A DNA stretch of 32,000 nt. Source: Aquifex aeolicus VF5 (lineage in GTDB: Bacteria > Aquificota > Aquificia > Aquificales > Aquificaceae). The notes beneath the pieces were generated by a model. The model was not told the origin of the DNA and did not search any database. It worked only from the letters and a program-made list of their open reading frames with translations. The position numbers and the translations under genes are program-made. Position 1 is the first letter of the stretch; each line of letters begins with the position of its first letter. Location of the stretch: assembly GCF_000008625.1 (NCBI RefSeq), contig NC_001880.1, positions 7,457 to 39,456 on the forward strand, read 5' to 3'. Shown here piece after piece: positions 2 to 28,571 of this stretch.

Positions 2-523
2 AATCCCTTTGACGTGGACCTTGACCATTTAATAGCGCTTTTTCGGAAGAAAGCAAAAGAACTTAAGGGCTCCGAATACATGCTCGAAGCGGGAAAATTT
101 CTGGAGGCTTCTTCAAAACTCCTTTTGCTAAAGCTTGAATACTTCTTTCCCAAGTCCCAAAAAGAAAGGAAGAAGGTAAGTCTGAAGGAAGTTCAAGAAG
201 TATTGATAGAAGAGGGTGAGGAAGACCTTTCCCGTTTTGACACTTCTTTCTTGTGGGAGTATTCTCCTGAAGTCGGGAGACCTAAAAGCTCTAAAGGGGA
301 AAAGCCGAAAATCCTGGAGTGGAGAGAGTTCTGGAAACTCTCAAAAGAGCGCGTTCCACTTCACAGGGAACCGAACTGGCAGGAAGAGGCAAAAAGAGTT
401 TATGAGGAGATAAAGAGGGGAGTGTTCAGGATAAGGAACTTGAGGGACTTCATAGCTTTTCTGTTTGCCTACATGGAGTATGAGGAAGTCCAGAAGGAAG
501 AGCTATTAAGGAGATTACTTTAG
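2..523 (+). CDS. ScpA/kleisin-like protein (short); reading frame is open to the left window edge, GTG at 14 is the first possible start
   Basis: ORF 14..523 with no stop back to position 2. N-terminal FDVDLDHLIALF...LEAGKFLEASSKLLLLKLEYFFP resembles the ScpA N-terminal helices. C-terminal FIAFLFAYMEYEEV resembles the ScpA winged-helix end. By-eye similarity only. Confidence 0.4.
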   Translation, partial: NPFDVDLDHLIALFRKKAKELKGSEYMLEAGKFLEASSKLLLLKLEYFFPKSQKERKKVSLKEVQEVLIEEGEEDLSRFDTSFLWEYSPEVGRPKSSKGEKPKILEWREFWKLSKERVPLHREPNWQEEAKRVYEEIKRGVFRIRNLRDFIAFLFAYMEYEEVQKEELLRRLL

Positions 524-12738: not shown

Positions 12739-12843
12739 TTACTTTTCCCCAGTAGCTATTTTCACACTTTTATAAACAAAGTAAATAAATGCACTTGCGA
12801 TTATAATTGCCCCTAAAACTGCCAAAATGTCGTAAATGTTCAT
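12739..12843 (-). CDS. 34 aa single-TM peptide (MNIYDILAVLGAI), cassette C
   Basis: ATGA start/stop overlap with 12840..13109. Same family as 6768..6884 and 15856..15972. Below the ORF-track size cut-off. Confidence 0.5.
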   Translation of the reverse strand: MNIYDILAVLGAIIIASAFIYFVYKSVKIATGEK

Positions 12844-13109
12844 TTATCTGCCTCCTTATTATTTAATTTAGACAAAAGTTCAATGTAGTCTTCTATTTTG
12901 ATTAGCAATCGCAAGGTTAGACTAATAAGAATTATTTCCGTAAAAGCACCCACGAATAATAGAAAAACCTTTATTTTATTATCAAGGTTTAAAAGCAGGC
13001 TTATTGTCCCACCACCTATAGCTATAATAGTAATCCAGAATAGTTTAAGAAGCTCAGTTAAAAACTTTATCTTTTCCTTTACGTATTCTTCCTTGTTCAC
13101 ATTTATCAT
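12840..13109 (-). CDS. 89 aa two-TM membrane protein, the full-length member of the family truncated at 6575 and 16190
   Basis: IAIGGGTISLLLNLDNKIKVFLLFVGAF...LLIKIEDYIELLSKLNNKEADK aligns with both truncated copies. Confidence 0.6.
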   Translation of the reverse strand: MINVNKEEYVKEKIKFLTELLKLFWITIIAIGGGTISLLLNLDNKIKVFLLFVGAFTEIILISLTLRLLIKIEDYIELLSKLNNKEADK

Positions 13110-13233
13110 TTTATCATTCTCCTAAAGACTGAGAATTCCCAAACTTCATCACCAAAGAAGTTTGATATTTGAAAATCAATAGATTGGTAAATATACCTTT
13201 ATAAACATATTGAAAATCAAAGGCTTAAAGCAA

Positions 13234-13648
13234 TCATTCTATAGTTAAGGCATTTGTACACTTCTTTACTCCCTTATCAAAGGACACAACTTTGTATTTC
13301 TTAGAATACGCACAAAGAAGGCAATCTACAAAGTCTAAGTTCTTATTAGAGTATATCTTTAGAGCCTCTATAAGGAGCTCATTATCTTCAATTTTCACAT
13401 TCCTAAGTTCCAGTATGTCTATAAGTACCTGTGATATAGTAGGTCTATCAACTTTATATACTTTCTTGAAGAACATAAACAATTTCGGCTATCACTACCT
13501 GTGGGATAAAAACTTTTAGTTCTCCGGAGAGTATCTTATTAAATAACTCCTCAGCCTCTTTATACAGCTTCCTGTGGTCTTTAAGTAGATATCGCAGGAT
13601 TACATTAGCATTAACAATTATCTCTTTTTCCCCTTTCCGCGAGGCCAT
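13234..13648 (-). pseudogene. vapC: PIN-domain VapC toxin split by a frameshift (copy A)
   Basis: ORFs 13454..13648 and 13234..13482 together form one PIN domain (IIVNANVILRYLL / VIAEIVYVL / KVYKVDRPTISQVL / LDFVDCLL / VVSFDK). The frame changes in the AAGAAAG stretch. The first catalytic Asp position reads Asn. Confidence 0.75.
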
Positions 13649-13859
13649 CGCCTATTGCCTCTTTTTCAGTTTTCATTATCTCTTCTATGGACCTGTCACG
13701 GGTAGCGTATTTGTGTAGAATTCCTCCCAATTTCTTAACAGGTTTAATTATTACTTTTCCCTTCTCATAGGTTATCTCAACTATATCAGTTCCTAATAAT
13801 TTCCTGTACTCAGCAGGTATGGTAATTTGTCCTTTCTTAGTAAGCTTAGCTATTTTCAT
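13611..13859 (-). CDS. vapB: AbrB/SpoVT-type antitoxin (copy A)
   Basis: MKIAKLTKKGQITIPAEYRKLLG is a typical swapped-hairpin AbrB/MazE N-terminus. Lies upstream of, and overlaps, the PIN gene. Confidence 0.8.
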   Translation of the reverse strand: MKIAKLTKKGQITIPAEYRKLLGTDIVEITYEKGKVIIKPVKKLGGILHKYATRDRSIEEIMKTEKEAIGDGLAERGKRDNC

Positions 13860-13960
13860 TCTTACCTACCTCAATAGGTACTACTTATTGTATAAAGTAT
13901 TACTTACATTATATAGTGTTACTTTTCACAAAAATGATTACATAGTATAGGTAGTTGTGA

Positions 13961-14110
13961 TTAGCTATGCTGTTTGTTAGAGACTGCCAAGATAAGGGTG
14001 TAAGAAAATAGGTATATGGGTGTGCCTGCATACGCGTTTATCTTCATCCTTTCTTCATTCTTAAAGGCTTTTATGATTTCTTTCTGTTCTTCCGTTAGTT
14101 TTATACCCAT
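13961..14110 (-). pseudogene. N-terminal fragment of a UvrD/AAA_19-type helicase
   Basis: MGIKLTEEQKEIIKAFKNEERMKINAYAGT then unrelated sequence. The Walker A motif (AGTGKT) is broken after AGT. Confidence 0.5.
13980..14013 (+). mobile_element. IS terminus copy 5 (short)
   Basis: GAGACTGCCAAGATAAGGGTGTAAGAAAATAGGT, compared with copy 4 GAGACCGCCAAGTTAAGGGAAATAGGT. Confidence 0.5.
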
Positions 14111-14127
14111 TAGTTTTAATATAATTT

Positions 14128-14153
14128 GAGACCGCCAAGTTAAGGGAAATAGG
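14128..14153 (+). mobile_element. IS terminus copy 4 (short)
   Basis: GAGACCGCCAAGTTAAGGGAAATAGG, followed directly by TTGAAAATCAA. Confidence 0.55.
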
Positions 14154-14256
14154 TTGAAAATCAAGGGAACTGTTAATAACAGAACTTTACTGGAGTTTTA
14201 GAATCTCTTGAATATGCTTTGGCAATTATTTTATATGACATAAACTGTAAACTTCT

Positions 14257-14877
14257 CTAGTTTTCTAGGTACTCTTTTACTTTTCTTTTAAAGAATTCTT
14301 CAACTTCCTCCCAGTAAGGTTCTATATCTTCATAAACTTCTTCCCTTGCATCTTCGAAATATACGAGACTTTTTACAATAATTGAAAAGTCAATATTCCT
14401 GTACTTTTTTTTAACCAATTTTTCAAGCTCTTTTAAATCCCATCCGTGTTTTCTCATCAAAAACCACAGGTCGTAAAAATCCTTCTTTGACCCCCTTTGA
14501 GCTATTGCTACTGCCTTCATACAGGCAATATCCTTGTCCCCCGCTATGAAAATCCCAAGATCATTATTTTTTTCAGGGTTCTCTAACAGCGGGTATCGGT
14601 ATTCAAAAAAAGAGAATTTAATTCCATCAAGCAAGAATATTAGAGTATCTTTACTCTGATAAAGCCACCTTACTCTGCTTAGTTTATCAATTTGCCTTGA
14701 TATAGAGAAACTGTCAAAGGGTTTTTCAGGAAAAGTAAAAAAGTCAAAATCATCTGAAAATCTGTGCCCATATCTTATAAGCAAAGCGGTTCCTCCTGCA
14801 AGATAAAAATCGTTACAGATCCCTAAAGAAACTACTTTTTCTAAAGCCTCTCTCTGTTCTTTCTTTAACTTCCTCAT
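14257..14877 (-). CDS. AbiEii/AbiGii-like nucleotidyltransferase (DUF1814-type toxin)
   Basis: N-terminal FYLAGGTALLIRYGHRFSDDFDFF matches the family signature (GGTAL...R.S.D.DF). Confidence 0.6.
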   Translation of the reverse strand: MRKLKKEQREALEKVVSLGICNDFYLAGGTALLIRYGHRFSDDFDFFTFPEKPFDSFSISRQIDKLSRVRWLYQSKDTLIFLLDGIKFSFFEYRYPLLENPEKNNDLGIFIAGDKDIACMKAVAIAQRGSKKDFYDLWFLMRKHGWDLKELEKLVKKKYRNIDFSIIVKSLVYFEDAREEVYEDIEPYWEEVEEFFKRKVKEYLEN

Positions 14878-15061
14878 CGCTTATATTTAAAGCTAACTTC
14901 CAGAAAGCTCTATTTTTAGCGTCAAACCTATGCAGGTTTTTCAAAAATGCCTCTCTCAGTTTTTTCCTAGGATATTTTTTGAGAACTTCTTTTACGTTTC
15001 CGTAAAGCATTTCTCTTATCAAAAGTTCCCTTTCACTTTTTACCTTGTCCCAGTTAAACAT
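14813..15061 (-). CDS. Small upstream partner ORF of the AbiEii-like gene (candidate antitoxin)
   Basis: 82 aa on the same strand, overlapping the NTase start by 65 nt. No recognisable motif. Confidence 0.4.
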   Translation of the reverse strand: MFNWDKVKSERELLIREMLYGNVKEVLKKYPRKKLREAFLKNLHRFDAKNRAFWKLALNISDEEVKERTERGFRKSSFFRDL

Positions 15062-15223
15062 TTCTATCTAAAACAATTTTAAAATTTTCTAAAGCTTTCT
15101 TAGGTGTGGAGCCTACACTAAAAATCGGAGCTCCCACTACCTCAGCTCCCCAATTACTCTCTTTGTCCTTACGTAGAATTACAAGAAATTTATATTCGTA
15201 ACATATCATATATATTCAATATT

Positions 15224-15448
15224 ATGAAAAGAACGACCATTTTTATAAACGAAGAAACCAAACAAAAAATCAAACTAATAGCCAAGAAAAAGCAAAAAAG
15301 CATGGCAGAAATTATAAGAGAAGCTATAAATGAGTACATTGTAAAACACAAAAAGAATAAGAAGTATTCCTTTATAGGACTTGGTAAAAGCAAAAGATCT
15401 GATATCTCGGAAATTCATGAGGAAAAACTTTGGAAATACTCACAGTAG
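15224..15448 (+). CDS. Ribbon-helix-helix (CopG/VapB-type) antitoxin, with no toxin gene downstream
   Basis: MKRTTIFINEETKQKIKLIAKKKQKSMAEIIREAINEYI is a canonical RHH pattern. Only about 80 bp of non-coding DNA follows. Confidence 0.65.
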   Translation: MKRTTIFINEETKQKIKLIAKKKQKSMAEIIREAINEYIVKHKKNKKYSFIGLGKSKRSDISEIHEEKLWKYSQ

Positions 15449-15527
15449 ATAGGAGAGGTTTTTTGGGAATTAAAATTGGAAGAAGAAATCTGATGCTTTT
15501 ACCATAACAACTCAATTTCTTCGTTAT

Positions 15528-15635
15528 TTATCCTTGCTTTTCAGTTTCCTGCTTATTAACAAGCCAAACTATTACGAGACCAACTGTCAATATCCCAAGA
15601 CCTATAAGAATAAAACCTACGGTGTAGCTATCCAT
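15528..15635 (-). CDS. 35 aa single-TM peptide (cassette B), paralog of 7100..7207
   Basis: MDSYTVGFILIGLGILTVGLVIVWLVNKQETEKQG, with an 8-nt overlap with the upstream gene as in cassette A. Confidence 0.5.
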   Translation of the reverse strand: MDSYTVGFILIGLGILTVGLVIVWLVNKQETEKQG

Positions 15636-15831
15636 CTTCACTTCCCTTATTAACAAAGTAAACTCCCAGCAAAAAGAAGGCGAGCCAAAATCCAAAAACA
15701 AGCAATAAGTAAAATAAGTTCGCCTTATGCTTTTGAAATAATGGAGCAACCAAGCCAACTGAAAGGAAAACTGTGGCAACTGTGAGAAAGCGCTTTCCTA
15801 TTTCCTTAAGTGTTTCCCTTTTCAACCTCAA
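15628..15831 (-). CDS. 67 aa two-TM membrane protein (cassette B), paralog of 6904..7107
   Basis: Same length, same TTG start and the same MRLKRETLKE N-terminus. Confidence 0.6.
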   Translation of the reverse strand: MRLKRETLKEIGKRFLTVATVFLSVGLVAPLFQKHKANLFYLLLVFGFWLAFFLLGVYFVNKGSEDG

Positions 15832-15855
15832 AAGATTTCCTCTCCTTCTTTTACT

Positions 15856-15972
15856 TCACTTAGCTTTTGGCTTTTTACCCTCTTCCAAAGTCATCTTAAG
15901 CATCATAACCACTATAAAGAGAAGAATTCCCCATAGGGCGACAGCTCCCAAGAAGGCAATCACATCATACAT
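15856..15972 (-). CDS. 38 aa single-TM peptide (cassette B), paralog of 6768..6884
   Basis: MYDVIAFLGAVALWGILLFIVVMMLKMTLEEGKKPKAK, with AAGGAGG before the ATG. Confidence 0.55.
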   Translation of the reverse strand: MYDVIAFLGAVALWGILLFIVVMMLKMTLEEGKKPKAK

Positions 15973-16000
15973 TTTTCTCCTCCTTGCTCTTTTCTAATCT

Positions 16001-16190
16001 CTAAAGTTCCTCAAGAAGATCAAGTATTTTCCTGTAAGTAACAATCGTAAAAAGGACAAATCCGAGTGTTAGCGATGAGCCCGCAAAAAGCAAGAAAACC
16101 TTTAGCAAGCTATCAAGCTTTAACAACAGCCCTATATTTCCACCGCCGAAAGTTAATGATAGCTTTAAAATTGGTGAAGGAATTCCAAAC
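16001..16190 (-). pseudogene. 5'-truncated paralog of 12840..13109 (cassette B)
   Basis: The reverse complement aligns at DNA level with 6575-6740. It is truncated at the same point (ATTTTAAAGCTATCATTAAC). Confidence 0.55.
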
Positions 16191-16194
16191 TTAC

Positions 16195-16753
16195 GACATA
16201 CAAATTCAAGTTTATATTTCTTTTTGTATCTCCTTCTGAAAGGAATTGTAGTAAATCTATGTGGAAAGTTCTATCCTTTAAAAACTTCATTGGAATGTCT
16301 ATGTCGTGAAGTATAGATCTTATTTTCATTATGTATCCATCAAATTTATATCCGTTGTAGCTAACAATTCTATCAGCTTTTATTATTTCTTCCCAGAATT
16401 TTTGTATGAGGATTTTTCCTTTTCTTCAAGCTCTTCATAAATAAAGTCGGAACTTATCGGTTCAAAGAAAACTTCTACAGTCTTATTCTTACCACATGGG
16501 ATTAGTTTTTTTGTCGTTCTGGTTTGTTTGATCGGAAAGATATACTACTTTTCCTTCTTTTATTATCACTATCTTCTATAAGTACCGTTGAGAAAGATAC
16601 TAAAATAAGCGTGAAGGGATTAAAAGAAAATTCTCGTTCAATATCTTCCTGTGTTTTTTCCCTTTTGCCCCGCTTCTGAATGTATAAATAGTCATCGTAA
16701 GTAATATTCCTTTTATCAGGAACTGTTTCTATATCAAAAACTATAACTTTCAC
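16195..16753 (-). pseudogene. PolB-exonuclease-like 3'-5' exonuclease (COG3298-type), multiply frameshifted and 3'-truncated
   Basis: 16502..16753 starts MKVIVFDIETVP (ExoI DxE motif). Further pieces IVIIKEGKVVYL, ILIQKFWEEIIKADRIVSYNGYKFDGYIMKIRS and FHIDLLQFL lie in other frames. Confidence 0.65.
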
Positions 16754-16790
16754 CTTCTTCCTCCTTCTTTTATTATATTTTTAACCAGTT

Positions 16791-17339
16791 TCAGCGTTTA
16801 CTTATTCTTATAACGGAAAACAGAGAGGTGAAAATATTTCTCTTTTCACTTACCCCTATAGTTTTTAAAAACTCCTCTTTTAGAATGAGATAACTGTCCT
16901 GTAAAAATCCATTATCAAATTCTTCAAGCGGTGTGAGATAACCCGCATCTTTTATCTGGACTTTATAACAAGGGACAAGTTTCTTTTGATCCTGTTTGTG
17001 ATAATAACGGACCTCTTCAAATTTTTCGGGAGAGGTAAGGTAGAGTTTCTTCCATCCTTTGAGCATAGCCCTTTCAAAGTTCCCGTAATAATTTTCGGGA
17101 ACGGGAATTCCCTCGTTAAGTAGAAAGTCTCTTGAAAAGTAAAGAGGATCTTCTTCTTTTAACTCAATCTTTTCAGGATTAACACATTTTAAAAACTTCA
17201 GAAAGAGAGAATTGTTTGCTTTTCCTAAAAGTTTATTTACGCTCTTTTTTGAAGAAATCTGAACCTCAAAAGGCAAGAAACACGCTCTCCTGAAAATCTG
17301 CCTTTCTCCCGTAAGATCAAAAAGATTACTGGTTAACAT
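16791..17339 (-). CDS. Hypothetical protein, last intact gene of the nuclease/ATPase island
   Basis: ORF 16791..17372. The ATG at 17339 follows AGAGGAG and leaves a 14-nt overlap with the ATPase gene. Confidence 0.5.
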   Translation of the reverse strand: MLTSNLFDLTGERQIFRRACFLPFEVQISSKKSVNKLLGKANNSLFLKFLKCVNPEKIELKEEDPLYFSRDFLLNEGIPVPENYYGNFERAMLKGWKKLYLTSPEKFEEVRYYHKQDQKKLVPCYKVQIKDAGYLTPLEEFDNGFLQDSYLILKEEFLKTIGVSEKRNIFTSLFSVIRISKR

Positions 17340-18105
17340 AGCTCCTCTTTTTACTCCCGAGTCTCCACTCAATTCCTTTAGCTTTTAGCTTTGAACCAAG
17401 TGCTCTTTTATCCCTGAGATGTTCTGGTGGAACTTCGTCAATAAGAACAGGCATTCTGTTATCTATGTAAAGAATTGCCTCAAAAGTATTTGCCTTGCTG
17501 TTTCTGGTTTCCTTTAATTTTCCGTAGTAAATTTTTTCTGTCCCCAGAAGTTTTGCTATGAAATTAAGAAGCGTAGTTTTTCCGGCCTTAGGAGTACCTA
17601 TTAAAAGGGAAAATACGGGAAATTTATTTATATCCTTCATTAACTCAGTTGCTTTTTCCCTGACTTCCTTGAGAAATACAGAATAAAAAGAAAATATAAT
17701 AGCCTCTCCGGTTAAAAATCTGTGTTCCTCACTCGTTTCTGTGGAAAGTTCTATATAATCCTTTATCGCAATTACAGTTTTCTTTACAGATTCCTCGGGA
17801 ATAGAAATCTCAACAACGGATTTTCCATTATAAAAAATTTCTCCATCGCAAACCGCTACGTTTACTTTTTCATCTTTATCTTCCCTTTTATTCTTCAAGA
17901 TTTCCTGAATCTTTTGAGGAGATATTAGTATTTCCTTCTTCTTTTCCGCAAGCTTCTGAAACATTTCTGCGCTTTCTTCAACCGCTTTTTTTCTGACAAG
18001 AGACTTCTGAGCTTCGTTAAAAATGGGACTGTTAATCACTTTAGTATAGTAGTAATTGAGAACAACATTTTTTACTTTTTCGTTTTTCTCAAATTCCTTT
18101 ATCAC
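17326..18105 (-). CDS. P-loop NTPase (possibly SF3-helicase-like)
   Basis: Walker A LLIGTPKAGKTTLLNFI and Walker B-like MPVLIDEV. GTG start; the frame stays open upstream to 18333. Confidence 0.6.
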   Translation of the reverse strand: MIKEFEKNEKVKNVVLNYYYTKVINSPIFNEAQKSLVRKKAVEESAEMFQKLAEKKKEILISPQKIQEILKNKREDKDEKVNVAVCDGEIFYNGKSVVEISIPEESVKKTVIAIKDYIELSTETSEEHRFLTGEAIIFSFYSVFLKEVREKATELMKDINKFPVFSLLIGTPKAGKTTLLNFIAKLLGTEKIYYGKLKETRNSKANTFEAILYIDNRMPVLIDEVPPEHLRDKRALGSKLKAKGIEWRLGSKKRSYVNQ

Positions 18106-18284
18106 TTCCCTTACTACTTCCGGTTCCTGAGTTTCTATAAACAGATTTAAGTGTTTTTCAATTTTCTTACTATTTTCAGATGCCTTTTTTCTTAAATCGG
18201 TGGAGCTTATTATTTTCCTTGCCCTACTTTTTACATAATTGTAATACCTTTCACATTCTTCAATTACGTTATCCTTTTCAATTA

Positions 18285-18740
18285 TTACAAAAAAAACTCT
18301 TCCTGAGGTCCCCTCCAGGCTAAAGAGGATAAATTACCACTCCCTGCTACGACAATTTTCCTTTCTTCGGATTCAAGTATGTATAACTTTGTATGACAGT
18401 TTGGAATGTAGTAAACGGAGAAATCTTTAAACATGGCTTGTTTACTTATTTCTTCTCCTTCTTTGAGGAACTTTTCCACTATAACTTCCAGGTTATAAAG
18501 TTCCCTTCCTTGTTCTTCTAACCCTATCAGGATTTCCACTTCCCTGTAATCCTTTAAAAGATCAAGGATACTCTTCAGAGAGGAGAAAGTTATAGCTTTT
18601 ATCCTGTTGAATTGCCTAAGGTATTTCCCTGGAATATCGTACAGGAGTTTAATTTCCTCTTCGCCTATACTAAGAATAGGCTTTTTAGTATCTTTTTCAG
18701 GTTCCTCTGAAAAAAGTTGTTTGTTCATTATACCTCCCAA
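18285..18740 (-). CDS. PLD-superfamily (HKD motif) nuclease domain protein
   Basis: C-terminal CHTKLYILESEERKIVVAGSGNLS matches HxK(x)4[D/E](x)6GSxN, with Glu at the Asp position. Confidence 0.6.
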   Translation of the reverse strand: MGGIMNKQLFSEEPEKDTKKPILSIGEEEIKLLYDIPGKYLRQFNRIKAITFSSLKSILDLLKDYREVEILIGLEEQGRELYNLEVIVEKFLKEGEEISKQAMFKDFSVYYIPNCHTKLYILESEERKIVVAGSGNLSSLAWRGPQEEFFL

Positions 18741-18878
18741 ACTACTTAAAATTTCGCATCAGATAGTGCCTATTTCAAGCTAAGTCCTATCTTTTACTAA
18801 ACTTACTTTTCTAACTTATATAAGTTATATTACTTATAAAACTAAACTTTATTTAAAGAATAAAATTCATTAGCACCC

Positions 18879-19649
18879 TTATACGACTTCTACCAGTAAA
18901 GGAAAAGGTACGCCGGTTCCGCTCACAATACCTTTACCGGTAGGTAGTTTCGGAAGAATGTTCGCTATATCACTTCCAGCAAATTCTACAAAAGTGGAAA
19001 CTGTATCAATGTCAGATGCATTTATAGTTCTAAACATAACCTGAGTGTTTAATTGAGAAAGGATATATTTGCTAACCTGTGCTGGTCTTTGCGTTATTAC
19101 CATAAGTCCTAAATTGAATTTCCTTCCCTCGGATGCTATCTTTCTGGCAAAAGTGAGAGAAAGGTTTTCTTTTCCTGCGGAGACATCCCCGAATCCCTTT
19201 TCTGGAGCAAAATTGTGCGCCTCTTCCAGAACTAAAAATCTTTTGGAAGGTTGTTTCTTATTCCTTGTAAAAAGCTCTTCCATTATCAGTCCTGCTATGT
19301 TTATTCTCGTTTGTGGATGCGTAATATTCCGGAAGTTAAAAATAATTACTCTCTTTTCACTTTCTAGTCCAGAATTTATTGCATCAAATACAGTTGTTTG
19401 GTTAGATAAACTATTTTCACCGTAAGTTTCTTTAAGGTAAGTGGTTATTTCTTGTATTTCCTTAGAACCCGCATTTAAACTTTCTATCAAATTAACAAGT
19501 GTTTTCTTAGATAAAGAAGTAAGTCTAAGAGAGGGTTTTATGTTCTGTGAAAGTTTTGATCTATTTTCCCTGGCCTGGTGTGAATTACCGCTTACCAGTG
19601 AAGGGTATCCTGCTTCTTTTATAAGTTCTTCCACTTCCTCTGGAAACAC
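18879..19649 (-). CDS. herA: HerA/FtsK-superfamily ATPase, C-terminal half (Walker B, arginine finger region)
   Basis: FLVLEEAHNFAP...EGRKFNLGLMVITQRPAQVSKYILSQLNTQVMFR is a typical HerA/DUF87 C-terminal core. In frame with 19686..20498 across one TAG. Confidence 0.75.
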   Translation of the reverse strand: MFPEEVEELIKEAGYPSLVSGNSHQARENRSKLSQNIKPSLRLTSLSKKTLVNLIESLNAGSKEIQEITTYLKETYGENSLSNQTTVFDAINSGLESEKRVIIFNFRNITHPQTRINIAGLIMEELFTRNKKQPSKRFLVLEEAHNFAPEKGFGDVSAGKENLSLTFARKIASEGRKFNLGLMVITQRPAQVSKYILSQLNTQVMFRTINASDIDTVSTFVEFAGSDIANILPKLPTGKGIVSGTGVPFPLLVEVV

Positions 19650-19685
19650 AGGGAAAATTGTATCTTCAAGTTCGATATGTTCTAT

Positions 19686-20498
19686 CTAGTTTTCATCTAT
19701 ATAACTCTTTAAATCGTTGAAGTATTCTCCGTGAGGATCAAGTACATAAACTTCAACTTCTTTATCGGATTCAAGTAAACTGGAAATAAACCTTTTTGTA
19801 AAATAGCTTTTTCCTGAACCGGTAGTACCTAGTACGAGCATGTGTTTACTTATCACCTCGTTTGCATCTACAAACACATCTATGTCAGAATTCTCAATCA
19901 CGCCAACTTTTACAGGAACTTCCATATCTCTCCCGGAAAAATTCTTCTTGAGTATTTTCCCCAGTGTTTTTTCTGATATTTTATAAACAGGTTCTCCTAC
20001 ATGGAAGGGATTTCTTAATATATCTAATTTTCCATCCTTTAGTATACCTATTACGTCCGCGGTTGCTATTTTCAGTTTATTTCCATTATTGTTGAGGTAA
20101 GCGTAAATAGCCGCCTTTTTCCATTCGTCATCTTTTCCTTTAGAAAAAATGGTTTTAAAGTCCTCTACGGGAGCAAAAACACTGGATTCCTGTGAAGTGA
20201 AGGGATTCGCAAAAAATCCCATATCGTAAGCAAAAATACTTGTTATCTTTCCGAGCACAATACCTTCCTGTAATTTCACTTCAACGTAAGAATGTAAACC
20301 TATATCATCATTGCCTACCAGAATAAACTCAAAGGATTGAGGTTTTACAGGATTTACAGTAAATCCTAAAAGATCATCTCCAAAACTTTCGGAATACTCT
20401 TCCTTAATTTTTTCAAAGTATTCACGTAGTTTTTTAATATGTTCATCACTGCCGTCCGATTCGTAATAAACTCCCGCTTCTATATTGCCCGTTGACAT
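19686..20498 (-). CDS. herA: HerA/FtsK-superfamily ATPase, N-terminal half (HAS-barrel region plus Walker A)
   Basis: HMLVLGTTGSGKSYFTKRFI...VYVLDPHGEY. Ends at TAG 19686-19688, which is in frame with the downstream half. Confidence 0.75.
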   Translation of the reverse strand: MSTGNIEAGVYYESDGSDEHIKKLREYFEKIKEEYSESFGDDLLGFTVNPVKPQSFEFILVGNDDIGLHSYVEVKLQEGIVLGKITSIFAYDMGFFANPFTSQESSVFAPVEDFKTIFSKGKDDEWKKAAIYAYLNNNGNKLKIATADVIGILKDGKLDILRNPFHVGEPVYKISEKTLGKILKKNFSGRDMEVPVKVGVIENSDIDVFVDANEVISKHMLVLGTTGSGKSYFTKRFISSLLESDKEVEVYVLDPHGEYFNDLKSYIDEN

Positions 20499-20499
20499 A

Positions 20500-20835
20500 T
20501 CAGATAATCCTGCATCCGGTAAAGTTCGCCGAACCTACGACTGCCCTTTTATTATCAACGATTATGAATTTTGCATGTAGCCTGTTACACAGGTAAATTT
20601 TTCCATTTATATCTTTAATATTTCTAAATACTCTGTCATTAGTTATGAGAAAATCCCTAAGTTCTGATGCTCTCAATATTATTTCAGGAGAAATATTTTT
20701 ACTCTTTGCTATATTCAGGATTTCTTCAAATATACTCCCTTTTATCCATGCGGATGCGATTTTTATGCTTTCCTTAGCTTCTTTTGTTATTTCTAAGATT
20801 TTCTTATATATTTCCTAGCTCGTCAGGATTTCCAT
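20500..20835 (-). pseudogene. Small Nuc-like PLD-family nuclease with in-frame TAG at codon 7
   Basis: GGAGGG, then ATG at 20835, MEILTS, TAG 20815-20817, then EIYKKILEITKEAKESIKIASAWI...NRLHAKFIIVDNKRAVVGSANFTGCRII. This is a perfect HxK(x)4D(x)6GSxN motif. The stop lies 1 nt before the herA ATG. Absent from the ORF track. Confidence 0.7.
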
Positions 20836-20948
20836 ATATTCTCCCTCCACTTCGGCTAATATAATATTTAATCTTATTCAGCATTGTATCAACAGGCTAT
20901 CAATGAAGTAATAAAATCTAAAGGAAATTTTCAGAGAACAAGCAAAAT

Positions 20949-21539
20949 TTATATCTTAAAAAGATAATAGTAATAAGTGAGTTGAAAGTTCTGCACTCCA
21001 TGCCTACTTCTGTAAAGTAATCCATGACAAAGGATACTTAAACTGTTATTTTTGTCATTTTCCATAAATTTGCTGAGTCGTTTAATTGTCTGAGTGTATG
21101 CTGATCTTGAAATGTATAAATTAATTGATAATAAAAATTTGTTTTGGACTTCGTCAAGTTCTCTTAGTTTGCATACATCTTCCCTCAACCACGAAAAATT
21201 ATTATCAATAATAGTTTTCACTTCCATAACTTCAATCACAGTTCCATCGTCTTTTTTTACAAGTGAAAAATCCGGTTGCTTGTTTGATTCTAATTTTGTT
21301 TTTGTCAGAGTTTCAGCTATACCGAGTTCTAAATTATTTGGTAAATTTCTTATATTTCTTATAAATTTTTCTGCCAAATACGTTACCATCGCCTGTTCAA
21401 ATCCGTAATCGTTCTTACGAAAATGTTTCCGATTTTCTTTCATTTTGTACAGATTTATTTGTGCAACTTCATCCAATATATGCTTAAAATAGTCAGGCAG
21501 ATTTTCAAGCGCTTCACAAGTCCAACTATCAAAATACAT
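20949..21539 (-). CDS. Putative PD-(D/E)xK-fold nuclease
   Basis: 196 aa. QPDFSLVKKDDGTVIEVMEVKT fits a D...(E)xK arrangement. By-eye call only. Confidence 0.4.
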   Translation of the reverse strand: MYFDSWTCEALENLPDYFKHILDEVAQINLYKMKENRKHFRKNDYGFEQAMVTYLAEKFIRNIRNLPNNLELGIAETLTKTKLESNKQPDFSLVKKDDGTVIEVMEVKTIIDNNFSWLREDVCKLRELDEVQNKFLLSINLYISRSAYTQTIKRLSKFMENDKNNSLSILCHGLLYRSRHGVQNFQLTYYYYLFKI

Positions 21540-21622
21540 AATTCATATAAAGATTATACGTATGAGCATCAAAAAAATATCGCTTTCAAAAAGCTGAAGC
21601 TGCGAAGGATAGAAACTAAACG

Positions 21623-21862
21623 TTAGATAACATAGTTCTGTAAAGTATTTTTCAATATCGTAAGAACTTTTTTCTCTTCCTTTGAAAGCCCTTCTAAAAA
21701 TTTTTTGCCTTCGAGGAATTCCTTTATAGGAAGAAAGTAAGTTCCATCTCTTCTTTCAATTCTAATTGCTCTAACAGGTTGATCTACGATAGAAATAATT
21801 GAATTTTTTAGCTTAATCTCCTTAAAAAGAAAAGGAGTTATGCATTTTCTACTTGACCTCAT
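21623..21862 (-). CDS. Hypothetical protein downstream of HTH paralog B
   Basis: 79 aa ORF on the same strand, 11 nt after 21874..22092. Confidence 0.4.
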   Translation of the reverse strand: MRSSRKCITPFLFKEIKLKNSIISIVDQPVRAIRIERRDGTYFLPIKEFLEGKKFLEGLSKEEKKVLTILKNTLQNYVI

Positions 21863-21873
21863 AGCTATTAAGT

Positions 21874-22092
21874 TTAGACGGAGAGCTCCTGAACAAGAAA
21901 ATCTACCACTTCCGGTTTGAAGTAGTAGTAATTAACAAGTCCTCTTCTCTTTATCCTTACCAATTCACCGGGAATGAAGCCTCTCTTTACATAACGGATT
22001 AAAGTTCTATCGCTTATCTCTATACCTCTTTCTTTAAGTTCTCTTAGAACCTGCGTACTCGTAAGATATCCCTGAATTCTTATTGCCGGCAT
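21874..22092 (-). CDS. Small excisionase/MerR-like HTH DNA-binding protein, paralog B
   Basis: 72 aa. RGFIPGELVRIKRRGLVNYYYFKPEVVDFLVQELS parallels 613..834. Confidence 0.7.
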   Translation of the reverse strand: MPAIRIQGYLTSTQVLRELKERGIEISDRTLIRYVKRGFIPGELVRIKRRGLVNYYYFKPEVVDFLVQELSV

Positions 22093-22149
22093 TTACATTA
22101 AGATAATAAGCTCTAAAGCCTTCCTTTTCAAGGAAAAAATAGAATTAGA

Positions 22150-22493
22150 GTTCTCCTATATATAGGAGAACTACTTTGAGCTCGCTAAAAATCAAGTCTC
22201 AGACACACCACTTGAACTCCGGAAGTTCTCCTAGCTATAGGAGAACCGCTACTTAACTTATTGATTTTCAAGCACTTTCTGTTTAGTTCTCCTAGAAACA
22301 TTTATATCTTTTTCCATATACAAAAGCTTTTTGTTATTGGAGAAGTAATAAGTTATATAGGAGAACTCTCCTTTCAAGTTTTTGATTTTCAATATAGTTC
22401 TCCTATATATAGGAGAACTTTTGTGATTTTTTCTATTCTGTAATGCCCGATTTTTAGTTTGGTCATAAGTGGTTCTCCTAGAACTAGGAGAAC
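22150..22493. repeat. Palindrome (iteron/operator) array, family 2: GTTCTCCTA-N4-TAGGAGAAC
   Basis: 22-bp palindromes at 22150-22171, 22225-22246, 22397-22418 and 22472-22493. A split palindrome has half-sites at 22286-22295 and 22358-22366. Confidence 0.9.
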
Positions 22494-22552
22494 CGACAAA
22501 GCAAAAAAATAGATAAAATCGAGGAATGCGACACTAAAATAGTTTTTAGGAC

Positions 22553-23509
22553 ATGCTTGAAGTTGAAAAAAAGATAAAACAAAAGCTGGGGATAGATGAA
22601 ACAGAGGTCCTGAGCTCCCTAACGAGCTACCGGAAAAAAGGCAAAACCTACTATAAAATTGTAACATACGATTCAAAAACGAAACAATCTAGGAGATACC
22701 ATGTGCCCAGAATGTTCGAAGAGGAGATTTTAGCTCTCTGGAAGCAGCGGCAGAAGTACATTGAAGAAGAAAGGGAACTTGAAAGGGAAGTAAAAAGCCT
22801 CTTAAAAAAATACGGGGATGCAGAAAAGATAAAGGAAATTCTGGAAAAAGTAGCAGGAGAAAGTTTTGATAAAGCTGTTTCCTCTTACGCAATTAAGACT
22901 TACACGAATAAGGCAAAGGAACTCTTTAAGAGTTTTAAAGAAGACCTTATAAAGCTTTACAGGGAGGGAGTTTTAAAAAGGCTTTCAGTTTTGCAGGTCC
23001 TTTACCTTCTTGCAAATTTGAAGGAGATTTCCGAAGATACGGAAAGAGGAAGTTACTTTTTCAAGAAAGGACTGAACACGATAATAAAAGTAGCAAAAAA
23101 CGAACGTATCCCAAATCCTTTCGGAACACTTAAAAACGACTTTTTCCTTTCGGGAAAGCAGACCCCTTATGACTTTCTCCTTTCGAATTTTCTTGAAGAG
23201 CTTATAGGAGAAACTCTAGGAGAACTCCTTGAAAAGGAAATTGAGAAATTAGTAGCGGAAGAAAAAGCAAAAGAAATCGAGGGAAAAGTAAAGAAGTTAA
23301 AGGAAATTGTTTCATGGTTTGAAACCCTTCCCTACGAAATAAAACAGATTGCAAAAGAAGTAATTTCTGACAATGTTCTGGATATTGCAGAAAAGTTCTA
23401 CAAGGATATGAAAGAATGCAATTACTCTCTTGATGAAGCAAAAGCATTTTTAACAAGTTCTCCTAGAGATAACCTGGTGAATTACATGCAATACCTTAAG
23501 TCTATATGA
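22553..23509 (+). CDS. 318 aa charged, helical protein, paralog B; candidate replication or iteron-associated protein
   Basis: Same length and shared motifs with 1329..2285. Confidence 0.75.
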   Translation: MLEVEKKIKQKLGIDETEVLSSLTSYRKKGKTYYKIVTYDSKTKQSRRYHVPRMFEEEILALWKQRQKYIEEERELEREVKSLLKKYGDAEKIKEILEKVAGESFDKAVSSYAIKTYTNKAKELFKSFKEDLIKLYREGVLKRLSVLQVLYLLANLKEISEDTERGSYFFKKGLNTIIKVAKNERIPNPFGTLKNDFFLSGKQTPYDFLLSNFLEELIGETLGELLEKEIEKLVAEEKAKEIEGKVKKLKEIVSWFETLPYEIKQIAKEVISDNVLDIAEKFYKDMKECNYSLDEAKAFLTSSPRDNLVNYMQYLKSI

Positions 23510-23514
23510 AAGTC

Positions 23515-23718
23515 TTACGCATTCTCTGAGAGTATTTCCGTTATAAGATCCTTCAACGTTTTCCCTTCCTTTAATGCCCTCATTTTAAGAGAAAACCACA
23601 CATCATAAGGAAGCTCTATCAGAAGTTTCTTAACCTGTGGTTTTTCTTCCCCTTCTTTTATCTTTGCAGAAGCTATAAATTCCTCGGGTTTTTTTGAAGG
23701 TTTCTTCGGTATAGCCAT
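23515..23718 (-). CDS. Small RHH centromere-binding partition protein (ParG-like)
   Basis: 67 aa directly downstream of parA. KKLLIELPYDVWFSLKMRALKEGKTLKDLITEIL fits an RHH with a basic flexible N-terminus. Confidence 0.6.
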   Translation of the reverse strand: MAIPKKPSKKPEEFIASAKIKEGEEKPQVKKLLIELPYDVWFSLKMRALKEGKTLKDLITEILSENA

Positions 23719-23748
23719 TATGTAACCTCCTTTATTTAAATTACTAAG

Positions 23749-24390
23749 TTAAGCAATATTAATTATATTACTAATTTCATTTATTAAGCTTTCAAGCTCC
23801 TCTATTGCTTTTTTATCGTTCATTTCAAGCACTCCCTTTCCTTCTTTTACAGAGTTTCTGTAAACTACTCTTGAGTGCAATCTTGAATTTAATACTCCTA
23901 CGGAGTACTGCTGTGCTAATTCTCTCAGGGTTTCCTCAGCTTCTTTCACGATGTTAGACTTTATTACTTGATTAAACAGTATATAAGCCGGGATATCTGC
24001 AAAGGTCCTTGCTTCTTGCAGAACCTTCAGGGTATCTTCTGTTGCCCATACATCGTAAACACTTGGGAGAACAGGTATTATCAAAGCTCCGTTTGATGCT
24101 GCAAGAATCGCGCTTCTGAAAACTGCACTATCTCTTCCCCCTACGTCGATAACTACAACATCAAAATTTTCAAAACCCTTAATGTCTTTGTGAATTGTGG
24201 GCTTTGTAATACCTATTGCTTTAATGTCGTCTTTTTCCCTGAGTGCCCTGAAGTTCAAACTACTTTCCTGGATATCCGCATCAATAAGTAGAACACTTTT
24301 TCCTCTGAGAGAATATCCTACGGCTAAATTACACGCAACAGTACTTTTCCCTACTCCTCCCTTCTGATTACCTACCACGATTACTTTCAT
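23749..24390 (-). CDS. parA: ParA/Soj-family partition ATPase (type Ib size)
   Basis: Deviant Walker A MKVIVVGNQKGGVGKST, then VLLIDADIQ; 213 aa. Confidence 0.9.
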   Translation of the reverse strand: MKVIVVGNQKGGVGKSTVACNLAVGYSLRGKSVLLIDADIQESSLNFRALREKDDIKAIGITKPTIHKDIKGFENFDVVVIDVGGRDSAVFRSAILAASNGALIIPVLPSVYDVWATEDTLKVLQEARTFADIPAYILFNQVIKSNIVKEAEETLRELAQQYSVGVLNSRLHSRVVYRNSVKEGKGVLEMNDKKAIEELESLINEISNIINIA

Positions 24391-24399
24391 AATGTTATT

Positions 24400-24575
24400 T
24401 ATTTTAGCAATATTTATTAGATAAGTTAGCTAACTAAAACTGATTTCAATATTTGATTATATAGATATGCCGCTTTCTATCTTTGCTTATCTAACTTATG
24501 TTGTTTAACTAATAATGATAACTTTTATTACAAAGTTTACTAACCTTAGTTAGTTACTAAAAAGCTTGAAACATT
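24400..24575. promoter_or_regulatory. Putative par promoter/centromere region with TAACTAA / ATAAGTTAG repeats
   Basis: Immediately upstream of parA. Contains AGATAAGTTAGCTAACTAA, CTTATCTAACTTATG and CCTTAGTTAGTTACTAA. Its core (24470-24560) is repeated in inverted orientation at 8854-8943. Confidence 0.55.
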
Positions 24576-24907
24576 ATGGTAAATACTTTATCAATAAAAC
24601 ATATGTTTATGAGAATATTTAAAAAGAAGATAATCAAAACGCTTTTAGGCCATATTTTAGTAAGGAGAAAGAAGAGGAAAAACCTTACGGATTTGGTAGG
24701 GGCTATTAAAGGAGGAGATAGCTTTAACGCAGTTGAGGATAAGCATAAATTATATCAAGTTTGCTAGACAAATAGCTTTAGTGGTAACGGTTGTAGGCTT
24801 TGCGTGGTGGTACATGAGAACGATTCTAAAAAATTTTTGTTAAGTTTTTTTAGAAACTCAATAATATCTTTTTCTTCTCCCGCAGAAACTTCAAAACTTT
24901 TTAGAGG

Positions 24908-25096
24908 GTTCTCATACTTATTATGTTGTCATTGAATGTGTATAAAGATTTAGGGTTTACATTAGTACCTATATTAATGTATGAGAGCTTTATTAGAAAG
25001 CCTTGAAAACAGGTAAGGTTCTCATACCTATGGGAAAACTCTAAAAAATGTGAAATTCTTGAAAATCAAAATGGTTCTCATACTTATATGAGAATC
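24908..25096. repeat. Palindrome array, family 3: GTTCTCATA-N4-TATGAGAAC (partly degenerate)
   Basis: Best copy 25074-25096 (GTTCTCATACTTATATGAGAATC). Weaker copies at 24908-24930 and 25018-25039. A right half-site TATGAGAGC at 24979-24987. Confidence 0.7.
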
Positions 25097-25176
25097 TTCA
25101 AAAAACTCATTTTTTTGAGGAATTGTTAACCTCGGTTTACAACTTTTTATTTTTCTTCCGTGTAAACCTTTCTTAA

Positions 25177-25614
25177 TCAAGTTTCAGAAAAGGGATTAAG
25201 GAGTCTAACTTTTTTGTTAAAAAGTTCCACCTCTTTATAAGGAGTGTCTTCACTAAGAACAATGGGGATGTTGTTATTAAGAGCGGAAGCTATTATTACT
25301 GCATCCCAAAATTGAAGGTAATATCTCTCTCTGAGAAAAATAGCAACTCTTAAGTCTTCACAATCTTCGTAAAGGATGTTGAACATTTTACTGATTCCCT
25401 TGATAATGCTATCTACTTCTTCGAAAGGTAAGCTATACTTTTCATGAGATATTCTGGCAAGTTCCTTGCATACTTGCGAGCTTATGTAAATTTTCCATCC
25501 ATTATGCAATAGACCACTTATGTATTCCTGCAAAAATTTCTGTTTTATTTCATCTTTATCAATCCCGAAAAAATAGCCGAGCAAATTTGTATCTATTAAA
25601 ACTTCCTTCTTCAT
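25177..25614 (-). CDS. PIN-domain ribonuclease (VapC-like), with no adjacent antitoxin ORF
   Basis: MKKEVLIDTNLL..., CKEL, FWDAVIIASAL and VLSED give the acidic PIN quartet pattern. Confidence 0.75.
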   Translation of the reverse strand: MKKEVLIDTNLLGYFFGIDKDEIKQKFLQEYISGLLHNGWKIYISSQVCKELARISHEKYSLPFEEVDSIIKGISKMFNILYEDCEDLRVAIFLRERYYLQFWDAVIIASALNNNIPIVLSEDTPYKEVELFNKKVRLLNPFSET

Positions 25615-25753
25615 GATACTCTTAACCTAAACTTTCCCTAAATTTAAGTCAAGTGTGTATAAAATCCGTGATTTACCAGCCTAATCATTATATCAATTAT
25701 AAGTTGACAGGTAGGTAAACTGACATAGTATTTATTAGAGGAGGTTTAGAAAA

Positions 25754-26194
25754 ATGGCTTTTCATATCCTACCTACTTTTGAGAGAGGAAATGAGAAAGG
25801 AGCTGTTATAGGGCGTGTAAAACACAGAAGGGAAAATCCATTAGAATACGAAATAAAGGTAGTAAAAAAAGGAAGTGTAAAAGTTTTTGTAGGAAATAAG
25901 GGAGTATTTGTTATAGAGGACGATTTAGCAAAAGAGATTATAAAAGCGTTATGGGAAAAATACGTCAGGGAAACCTACGGAAGAAGGAAGCCAAAAACGA
26001 ATAAGGAAATAGTAGAACATCCGATAGAAGTGAGAGAAAGTTTTCTTATAAATTTCTTTAAAGAGAAAGGTTTTATCACTTCATTTAAGTCCTGTATGTA
26101 TCTTATAGAAGGAACCAGTTCAGATGAATCAACTATTAAAGACTTAATACTTTTAACGAAAAAGATTAAAGAAAAGGTAACGAAAACAACATGA
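25754..26194 (+). CDS. Hypothetical protein
   Basis: 146 aa ORF with GAGGAGG before the ATG. Divergent from the PIN gene. Confidence 0.5.
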   Translation: MAFHILPTFERGNEKGAVIGRVKHRRENPLEYEIKVVKKGSVKVFVGNKGVFVIEDDLAKEIIKALWEKYVRETYGRRKPKTNKEIVEHPIEVRESFLINFFKEKGFITSFKSCMYLIEGTSSDESTIKDLILLTKKIKEKVTKTT

Positions 26195-26435
26195 AGTCAA
26201 CAAGCTCATACTAAAGGTGCAAACTTGAATCTGGAAGATTTTACTAATGGGAGAAAGTGTCGCTTCCGTTGTAAATGAACCTTTACAACTTCGCTTCTTA
26301 GTTCTCCTGAATTCGGGATAATTTTTGTTGTCCTAGTTCTTTTGTTAACATTTTTCCCAAGGGAAGTTTAAATCACCGTATCAGCTTATTAGGTATCTTG
26401 AATTTCAATCAGTTACGATTAACTTAAAAGATACG

Positions 26436-27398
26436 ATGACGTATCAAAACGGTGTTGAAGTTTTACTTGAGGAATTTCTTGATTATCTAACAAAGGAAGA
26501 AACCATATGCTCGCTGGAAATAGAAAAGTTAAAAGTTTCTATAGACGAACTTGAGAAAGAAACTGATGAGCCGAGAGTACTTCAAGGGATAAACTATTTC
26601 AGAACCGCAAAAGAAGTTTACCAACTTTCACGGAAAGCATATGAAACAAAAGAGGAAGTGGTCTCTGAAGCTTTAATACTATGGATTTATGAAAACCTAT
26701 GGAAAGGATTTAATGTTCCCAAGGGATATAGAAAAAGTGATATGGTTATTTTCGGTGCAAAATTTAGTCCTCCACCACCATATGTTGTTCCGAACCTTAT
26801 AAGAACAATAGTAAACTGGCTAAGGAATGAGAAAACAATAGATGTAGTTAAGAAATCTATTATTTTCCACACGCTATTTGAAGTTATACATCCGTTTCCT
26901 GACGGCAACGGAAGAGTGGGAAGAATACTTTTGAATGCAATCCTCGTAGAAAACGGACTCTTAAATGTTGCTTTTAGAAATAGAGAGAAATATATCTCCG
27001 CCTTGAGAGAAGCTGAAGAGGGAGCTATAGTAGTTGTTGAAAAACTATCAAGAGGAAGAAAAATAGATTATTCATCTATTACAGAAACTGTAGAGTATTA
27101 CGGAAACTTAAATGTTTTTGATGAACTAATAAGAACCGAGATGATGCACAGCTTGAAGGTATACTCAAATATAAAGCAAGTTTTCTTAACTCCAGAGGAG
27201 GCAGCAAAACTTTTAGGTTTAAAGAATAAGGATTACGTAAGAGTTCTAATCCACAGAGGAAAACTAAAAGCAGTTAAGGAAGAAGGTAAGTGGAAGATAC
27301 CTCTTTCTGAAGTTGTAAAGAACTTTGAACACAAACTGAAAGGAGAAGAATTCAAACTTGCCAATAATTTGTTCAAAGGTAAACTTAGTCCTTCTTAA
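26436..27398 (+). CDS. Fic-domain protein with C-terminal excisionase-type HTH
   Basis: Fic motif HPFPDGNGRVGR. C-terminal LTPEEAAKLLGLKNKDYVRVLIHRGKLKAVKEEGKWKIPLSEVV resembles HTH_17/excisionase domains. Confidence 0.85.
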   Translation: MTYQNGVEVLLEEFLDYLTKEETICSLEIEKLKVSIDELEKETDEPRVLQGINYFRTAKEVYQLSRKAYETKEEVVSEALILWIYENLWKGFNVPKGYRKSDMVIFGAKFSPPPPYVVPNLIRTIVNWLRNEKTIDVVKKSIIFHTLFEVIHPFPDGNGRVGRILLNAILVENGLLNVAFRNREKYISALREAEEGAIVVVEKLSRGRKIDYSSITETVEYYGNLNVFDELIRTEMMHSLKVYSNIKQVFLTPEEAAKLLGLKNKDYVRVLIHRGKLKAVKEEGKWKIPLSEVVKNFEHKLKGEEFKLANNLFKGKLSPS

Positions 27399-27438
27399 TT
27401 CCCGACAAAGTTGCTCTATCAGAAAGTTTTACCAGAAA

Positions 27439-27490
27439 GTCCTATATATAGGACAACTTTTCTACAGAGTTCTCATATCGGTATGAGAAC
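27439..27490. repeat. Two palindromes: GTCCTATATATAGGAC and a perfect family-3 site GTTCTCATATCGGTATGAGAAC
   Basis: 27439-27454 and 27469-27490, read directly from the sequence. Confidence 0.85.
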
Positions 27491-27781
27491 TTTTGCGTTG
27501 TGAACCATGGTTTACAACCTCAGGCAAGTCTTAACTGAGCTAAATTTAACCAAACTAAATTAATATACTTATGGAATATATACACGAAAGTATAAGAGAA
27601 TTCTGTTGTAAAAAGGGAGTGGGGTGTTCTAATTCTATCATTAATTCTGTCTCTTCTTGCAACATATGTGTAAACATTTTTCAAGGTAAGAAAGAAGAAG
27701 GTTTAACTTGAATTCCAAAAGCTCTTCAACTTTTTATTTTGCATCAGACATAGGAAAAAATCCTCCAAAACTCGGACCAAG

Positions 27782-28477
27782 TTAAGTAGCTTTCTTTCTT
27801 TTGAATGTTGGAAACAGAGAAAGGAAAGCCTCTATTTGTAAGAAAAGATGAGGCGGAATTTCCTTTATTAACTCTTTCCTCAACTCTTCAATCTTTTTGT
27901 TTCTGAGAAATTTAGCCGTCCTGAACTTTTCAAGACATACGTATATTCCCGCATTTGACATGTAATCAGGTTTTATAAAGTTGAAAAAGTATACTATTAG
28001 CCTCTTTCTGTCGTCGGGAGTATATCCTTTTTCCTCCAAAACTCTATACATGTAGGCAACAACTCTCGTGTATTTCGGGGCACTATACTTTTTCACGATT
28101 GGTTTTTTACTTCTTTTGTGAAATTGTTTCCTTCTTTCCCTTAACTTCGCATAAGTCCTGACAAGTGTTATTCCCTTTATAAAGTCCTTTAAATTTGGTC
28201 TCTTTCTACTGCCTAAGAAATATACTACGTCCTCCTCTACAAACTCTAAGGGATAACCATCTTTCATGAACCTTACCAGTCCTTCTTTTTTCATTTTCTC
28301 CCTTAACCACTCCTGAAGCTCCTTAAATGCTTTCTTTACACTTTTTACATCTTTTACATCTTTTATGGTTTGTGTGGTTTTAGTGTCTTTTCCATAATTT
28401 GTGGTATTACTGGAATTCCCATCTTTTATGTTATTACCATTCTTCCCATTTTCAACTTCCCGCTTTTTTCCGTCCAT
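27782..28477 (-). CDS. Hypothetical basic protein with low-complexity N-terminus
   Basis: 231 aa ORF with an N/G/K/T-rich start containing KDVKDVKSVKK. Divergent from the 9-bp repeat block. Confidence 0.5.
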   Translation of the reverse strand: MDGKKREVENGKNGNNIKDGNSSNTTNYGKDTKTTQTIKDVKDVKSVKKAFKELQEWLREKMKKEGLVRFMKDGYPLEFVEEDVVYFLGSRKRPNLKDFIKGITLVRTYAKLRERRKQFHKRSKKPIVKKYSAPKYTRVVAYMYRVLEEKGYTPDDRKRLIVYFFNFIKPDYMSNAGIYVCLEKFRTAKFLRNKKIEELRKELIKEIPPHLFLQIEAFLSLFPTFKRKKAT

Positions 28478-28571
28478 GCTAAAAATTGTATGCAGTTTTG
28501 AGGCGAAAACATATGAATAAGGTGTCTGCAGTTTGGAGGCGAGCTATATTGAATACATAATCACCATAAAA

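Follow-up and report, generated by a model that had tools for sequence, protein, structure and literature searches.

An unannotated segment of Aquifex aeolicus plasmid ece1 is very probably the 5' end of a PLD-HAS-HerA gene that recently became a pseudogene

Segment 20500-20835 of the window, the whole 32,000-nucleotide stretch of DNA analysed here, is very probably the unannotated 5' part of a PLD-HAS-HerA gene that has recently decayed into a pseudogene on plasmid ece1 (39,456 bp) of Aquifex aeolicus VF5. The first-pass annotation had described this segment as a hidden Nuc-like nuclease ORF; it is no small stand-alone nuclease but encodes the N-terminal domain of a PLD-HAS-HerA fusion of 651 codons. 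In our model the ancestral gene encoded one polypeptide of ~650 aa, in which a single-HKD PLD domain of Nuc-like fold was followed by a HAS-barrel and then by a HerA/FtsK-type ATPase; the copy on ece1 carries three independent disabling mutations, an amber at codon 7, a 1-nt insertion in the PLD domain and a second amber in the ATPase. The features of the gene and of its decayed neighbour are the following:

18879..20835, minus strand: whole decayed gene, PLD (HKD) nuclease, HAS-barrel and HerA/DUF87 ATPase, 651 codons after repair.
20843..20848, minus strand: Shine-Dalgarno-like GGAGGG, by direct reading, with a spacer of 7 nt to the ATG.
20833..20835, minus strand: start codon ATG; the aligned starts of the orthologs read M-[EK]-x-L-T-S-D.
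20815..20817, minus strand: lesion 1, an in-frame TAG at codon 7.
20518..20814, minus strand: PLD domain, residues 8-106, with the HKD motif (Pfam PLDc_2, E=1.9e-10).
20516..20519, minus strand: lesion 2, a 1-nt insertion within CCGG (ACC-G-GAT; nominal base 20517), causing a +1 shift.
20500..20502, minus strand: TGA that ends the shifted frame, preceded by the out-of-frame residues GCRII, by direct reading.
19689..20516, minus strand: rest of the PLD fold, HAS-barrel and Walker-A half of HerA.
19686..19688, minus strand: lesion 3, a second in-frame TAG at codon 383, in the variable ATPase linker between Walker A and Walker B.
18879..19685, minus strand: C-terminal half of HerA (Walker B LEEAH, QRPAQVSK), ending in TAA.
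16791..18728, minus strand: second decayed nuclease-NTPase gene directly downstream, NgoFVII-like PLD and Aq_aa27 P-loop, in three ORFs.

Direct reading of the minus strand confirmed the layout first described for the 5' end, in which GGAGGG precedes ATG 20835, codon 7 is TAG and 104 open codons follow. The six sense codons MEILTS run from ATG 20835 up to the TAG at 20817-20815, and the open stretch after the TAG, which includes LHAKFIIVDNKRAVVGSANFT, is exactly 104 codons long (20814-20503). This stretch does carry an HKD motif, as had been claimed, but it does not end in it: its true end, SANFTGCRII before the stop, lies five codons past the motif, and the open frame closes at TGA 20502-20500 because of the frameshift inside the PLD domain. 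The statement that no early start exists after the TAG also stands, the earliest canonical in-frame start in the ORF listing being TTG 20676 at codon 54. Re-initiation downstream of the TAG was considered and rejected, as this TTG would yield a 58-aa stub only. Scans for promoters and terminators returned counts at chance level, and a single promoter-like site (20892-20863, minus strand) was found upstream of the Shine-Dalgarno-like sequence.

Three-frame translation of 20900-16700 revealed that the PLD match runs on past the TGA, one base along and in the next frame, as DAGLSDMSTGNIEAGVYYESD..., which is the expected continuation of the PLD domain. Beyond the closed frame the gene goes on for ~545 further codons. 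After the TGA, one frame spans a 270-aa ORF, the in-frame TAG at 19688-19686 and a 256-aa ORF before ending at a TAA. The 270-aa ORF (19686..20498, from ATG 20498) is aq_aa31/O66421, which databases name 'helicase HerA domain-containing protein', and the 256-aa ORF (18879..19649, from GTG 19649) is O66420, named 'ATP-binding protein'. Removal of a single base behind ACC (T106), with X entered at both TAGs, gave us a 651-aa reconstruction with three domain matches:

Residues 15-143 of the reconstruction: PLDc_2, E=1.1e-12, profile positions 3-131 of 132.
Residues 149-266 of the reconstruction: HAS-barrel (Pfam), E=7.9e-11.
Residues 309-520 of the reconstruction: DUF87/HerA (Pfam), E=1.2e-24.

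The Walker motifs GTTGSGKS and VLEEAH are conserved in the HerA core, the ATPase reading frame being interrupted between them by TAG 19688-19686, and the PDB HerA structure 4d2i matches the reconstruction at E=2.7e-30. A search of 5.8 billion proteins found 167 relatives. The best ~100 are intact, measure 635-690 aa and span the whole reconstruction (100% coverage, 47-67% identity); they share its Pfam architecture and come mostly from Aquificota. For intact proteins of 640-670 aa coverage is likewise 100%, at 50-67% identity. The Aquificota relatives are from Aquifex pyrophilus, Desulfurobacterium and Thermovibrio, and the others from Hippea, Thermotogota, Pyrococcus and Thermococcus. All 95 full-length orthologs (620-700 aa, most of them from Aquificota) are PLD-HAS-HerA fusions that align along their whole length at 50-67% identity, none being a small stand-alone nuclease, and orthologous genome loci hold one ORF of 647-653 aa. 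An alignment of 17 sequences shows it to be colinear with its orthologs from M1 to the C-terminus of the reconstruction.

At the three lesion sites, no stop or break occurs in any of the 95 orthologs. Their N-termini read M-[KE]-x-L-T-S-D-E-I, and at position 7 D occurs in 75 of the 95, N in 12, and E and Q in two each; at the DNA level, codon 7 is GAC or GAT in 8/8 orthologous loci. The ortholog comparison thus makes codon 7 a sense position with a conserved Asp, and the TAG replaces a sense codon. The first-pass annotation had allowed that orthologs might start downstream with no conservation of the MEILTS codons. They start at the same place with MEILTS-type codons conserved, which identifies ATG 20835 as the true start. 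At the second lesion the window reads GGT TCG GCG AAC TTT ACC G GAT GCA GGA and the orthologs GGN TCN GCN AAC TTY ACN GAN GCN GGN, and removal of one base restores GSANFT-DAGLSD exactly, colinear with all orthologs. With these three lesions, translation from ATG 20835 should therefore halt after six residues and yield no functional nuclease. We infer that the lesions reflect neutral decay rather than regulation. The alternatives set out by the first-pass annotation were a freshly killed gene and a conditional switch; the killed gene is borne out by three lesions that orthologs do not have, and the switch gained no support.

The PLD assignment itself holds. In profile searches the 104-aa piece scores above the cut-offs for both PLDc_2 (41.2 bits against a cut-off of 27, E=1.9e-10) and the PLDc active-site motif (36.4 bits against 21.9), so that the HKD assignment passes, and the motif HxK(x)4D(x)6G[ST]xN is present as H87, K89, D94, G101, S102 and N104. 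The piece spans only positions 3-101 of the 132 in the PLDc_2 profile. The complete ~150-aa PLD fold is not contained in one open frame at 20500-20835, and the invariant residues G109, S111, G116, N117 and E119 fall after the frameshift, in another frame. An AlphaFold2 model of the domain from the closest intact ortholog (P0001, residues 1-152; 18-sequence alignment, mean pLDDT 91.6) places a strand (2-4) before the position of the TAG, and a further strand (121-125) and a helix (126-147) after the frameshift point. In Foldseek this intact domain matches Nuc (1byr) with E=1.1e-8 and TM 0.77/0.77 and NucT (6ehi) with TM 0.77, Zucchini and PLD3 being further neighbours; the label 'Nuc-like' therefore holds at the level of the fold, as judged from the ortholog model. 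The proposal that the nuclease is made by amber read-through fails, since the 1-nt insertion drops the last strand, the C-terminal helix and invariant residues. Even perfect read-through of codon 7 gives a 111-residue product that lacks the last third of the fold and ends in five out-of-frame residues, and which is therefore not a working nuclease.

Apart from its lesions the gene shows few signs of age. The repaired protein differs from its relatives at one of 102 near-invariant columns (D66N; columns with a conservation of 97% or more in the other sequences) and otherwise looks fully constrained, while intact orthologs show a mean of 0.67 and a maximum of four departures in the same test. 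Compared with 65 distant orthologs it averages 53.3% identity, within the range of 51.9-54.1% for intact proteins, and the branch of the window copy is not lengthened. Two nonsense mutations correspond to about 30 point mutations, which predicts 3-4 changes in conserved columns; this estimate is rough, with wide uncertainty, and the expectation of 3-4 is not significantly violated by the one change seen. The conserved residues being otherwise intact, the inactivation is probably recent. Such limited decay beyond the lesions fits a very recent death of the gene, continued selection being the alternative.

A rival reading is a functional split gene, in which the head was lost and aq_aa31 and O66420 are translated separately and reassemble into a HerA-like ATPase. 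Both pieces have in-frame starts (ATG 20498 and GTG 19649), are annotated as proteins and retain intact conserved motifs. However, the break lies inside a single RecA-like ATPase core, and the boundaries of the pieces match the mutations and not domain boundaries. Full-length orthologs are all single chains, the shorter database entries looking like contig-end fragments. The residue that aligns with ATG 20498 is variable in orthologs (Y, L, I or M), which marks this ATG as a chance start, and direct reading found no Shine-Dalgarno sequence at GTG 19649. We therefore give the split gene a slim chance.

The chance is slimmer still that the lesions form a conditional switch, with recoding as the gate and read-through of the TAG at codon 7 yielding a full-length or N-terminal toxic nuclease. 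The whole protein would also require a +1 shift after T106 and read-through of the TAG at codon 383. The intact conserved residues, the use of the same codon, TAG, for both premature stops and the retention of a good Shine-Dalgarno sequence and true start codon would all suit such a gate. Against this, three separate events are required, which is far less parsimonious than three mutations, and no lesion is conserved in 95 orthologs, with GAY at codon 7 in 8/8 loci. The shift would have to fall in the ~2 codons between the invariant T106 and G109, where AAC TTT ACC G GAT GCA offers no slippery sequence or homopolymer, no stop-adjacent shifty codon and no internal Shine-Dalgarno sequence. Read-through at codon 7 alone would leave a PLD fragment without the last strand, the last helix, N117 and E119. 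A neighbouring gene is broken too, which points to decay. TAG is the normal terminator of the ORFs 14..523 and 14257..14877, no tRNA gene, suppressor or other, lies within the window, and TAG 19688 is the only internal stop in the window flanked by long open frames on both sides; an alternative code with reassigned TAG was rejected on these three observations. An Rfam scan at the gathering threshold found no RNA family in the window.

Genes under programmed recoding, such as prfB with its +1 frameshift or those with amber read-through, likewise carry a near-start in-frame stop or a +1 change of frame. Unlike them, the window gene has lesions that are not conserved, lacks a stimulatory motif and would need three bypasses. 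Low-level expression through amber suppression at both TAGs together with a +1 shift at ACC-GGA is just as improbable as the switch, its sole support being the near-perfect conserved residues and the identity of both stops as TAG. If true, the gene would be leaky and, depending on stress, would supply the hyperthermophile with a toxic PLD-HerA nuclease-motor.

The slimmest chance of all attaches to a sequencing or assembly artefact, in which the cell would carry an intact gene and the deposited ece1 sequence would be wrong at the stops and the frameshift: the latter amounts to one additional base within CCGG and the original sequence dates from the 1990s, but an independent short-read assembly carries both TAGs and the extra base, all three lesions, and sequencing error is therefore very unlikely. 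This assembly (Logan ERR15087784, L080, 15,950 bp) corresponds to window 13668-29617 with two substitutions and no gaps, and the 270-aa ORF is identical in it. Both substitutions are non-synonymous, one at window 19316 (P507S in the HerA pseudogene) and the other at window 25529 (Q to R in a PIN-domain ORF).

The pseudogenised PLD-HAS-HerA gene is one of two such genes side by side: ece1 holds two adjacent, recently decayed nuclease-NTPase genes. The second is in three pieces: a 151-aa ORF that carries an NgoFVII-like PLD motif, aq_aa27 (a P-loop, Pfam PF27394) and aq_aa26. Its 644-aa reconstruction matches an intact 642-aa protein (P0131) at 42% identity and 96% coverage. Two frameshifts break up the gene, the first within the T8 run 18296-18289 and the second near 17350. 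The Pfam family PF27394, 'Aq_aa27', thus owes its name to the middle piece of a broken gene.

Look-ups of exact sequences, which assign the window to ece1, identified aq_aa26, aq_aa27, aq_aa32 and aq_aa34 as its other ORFs beside aq_aa31 and O66420, and a megablast of window 16000-24000 against a plasmid database gave no match. Precomputed Pfam hits on the ERR15087784 assembly, mapped to window 23749-28477 and 14257-14877, indicate a set of plasmid maintenance or addiction genes that comprises ParA/CbiA (23749..24390), PIN (25177..25614), Fic with HTH_17 (26436..27398), RHH_1 and a weak match to AbiEii (14257..14877). Two 318-aa paralogues, 40% identical and each with no recorded Pfam hit, lie on the plus strand at 1329-2285 and 22553-23509, the second being aq_aa34. 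A 733-nt inverted repeat (13136-13868 / 30687-31419) is 97% complementary, with arms 16.8 kb apart, and shorter inverted repeats occur at 6562-6943 / 15792-16178 and 8861-8941 / 24474-24554; these repeats could stem from a mobile element or serve as a recombination substrate. Three stretches of more than 1 kb each (6160-7347, 12592-14257 and 14877-16791) contain no ORF of at least 90 aa and may hold further decayed genes or non-coding elements.

For annotation, the main value of these results is to correct how aq_aa31, O66420, aq_aa26 and aq_aa27 are viewed: they are fragments of broken genes and, once this is known, need no longer be treated as stand-alone proteins. The PLD head of the first gene is also missing from the ORFs in the gene calls of the ERR15087784 assembly. 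The window copy is an ordinary unannotated pseudogene fragment, and the intact PLD-HAS-HerA family, common in thermophiles, is a reasonable target for biochemistry of which the window copy is no working example.

Intact members of this family occur in both bacteria and Thermococcales and are annotated as 'helicase HerA domain-containing protein', 'DUF87 domain-containing protein' or 'PLD phosphodiesterase domain-containing protein'. A search of the literature on ece1 or PLD-HerA fusions returned nothing specific, and the family appears to be experimentally uncharacterised. The intact orthologs inspected in their genomes (loci L081, L083 and L084; P0002, P0086 and P0113) are single stand-alone genes in differing neighbourhoods, which consist of housekeeping genes in Aquificales, of transposases and AddAB-like genes in Hippea, and of AbiEii, an integrase and a ScoMcrA-like gene in Pyrococcus yayanosii. 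When the window neighbours were compared by tblastn with 79 orthologous loci, no conserved operon partner emerged.

The closest known counterparts of the window gene are the PLD-HAS-HerA fusions of Aquifex pyrophilus, Desulfurobacterium, Thermovibrio, Hippea sp. KM1, Pyrococcus yayanosii and Thermococcus, which have the same domain order, are colinear with all 651 residues at 38-67% identity and retain all invariant catalytic and Walker residues. These fusions are intact single ORFs, whereas the window copy is broken by two TAGs and a 1-nt insertion. Nuc (Salmonella pKM101, 1byr) and NucT (H. pylori, 6ehi) likewise have one HKD per chain and a domain of ~150 aa. They are, however, small and stand-alone, whereas the PLD domain of the window gene is fused to a HerA motor; sequence identity is only 16-19%, and the window copy, unlike them, lacks an in-frame C-terminal third of the fold. 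The working form of single-HKD PLD nucleases is a dimer in which two HKD motifs make one active site, as established for Nuc, and we assume by analogy with Nuc and NucT that the PLD-HerA domain would pair in the same way.

The end-resection complex NurA-HerA and the HerA-based defence systems, Sir2-HerA and DUF4297-HerA among them, have the HerA ATPase with HAS-barrel in common with the fusion family. Solved HerA structures (4d2i, 8j4u, 8wiv and 8xau) are matched at E 1e-25 to 1e-33, PADLOC HerA models reach E-values as low as 1e-47, and the N-terminal domain is picked up by DrmC-type PLD models. HerA proteins work as hexamers that translocate DNA. By extension, the intact relatives would form a hexameric ATP-driven translocase that threads DNA, and the fused PLD domains would pair into HKD active sites and cut the threaded DNA. 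Given the HerA hexamer and the PLD dimer, an ATP-driven hexamer with paired N-terminal PLD domains that cleave threaded DNA would be the most likely mechanism. The fusion family, unlike HerA defence systems, has no conserved partner gene, and it may serve defence, plasmid competition or repair. The logic is the same as in NurA-HerA and the HerA defence systems, namely the coupling of a hexameric motor to a nuclease or effector. However, NurA, Sir2 and DUF4297 are separate subunits, whereas here the PLD effector is fused in cis, and the intact fusion would be a one-polypeptide analogue of the NurA-HerA or effector-HerA defence complexes.
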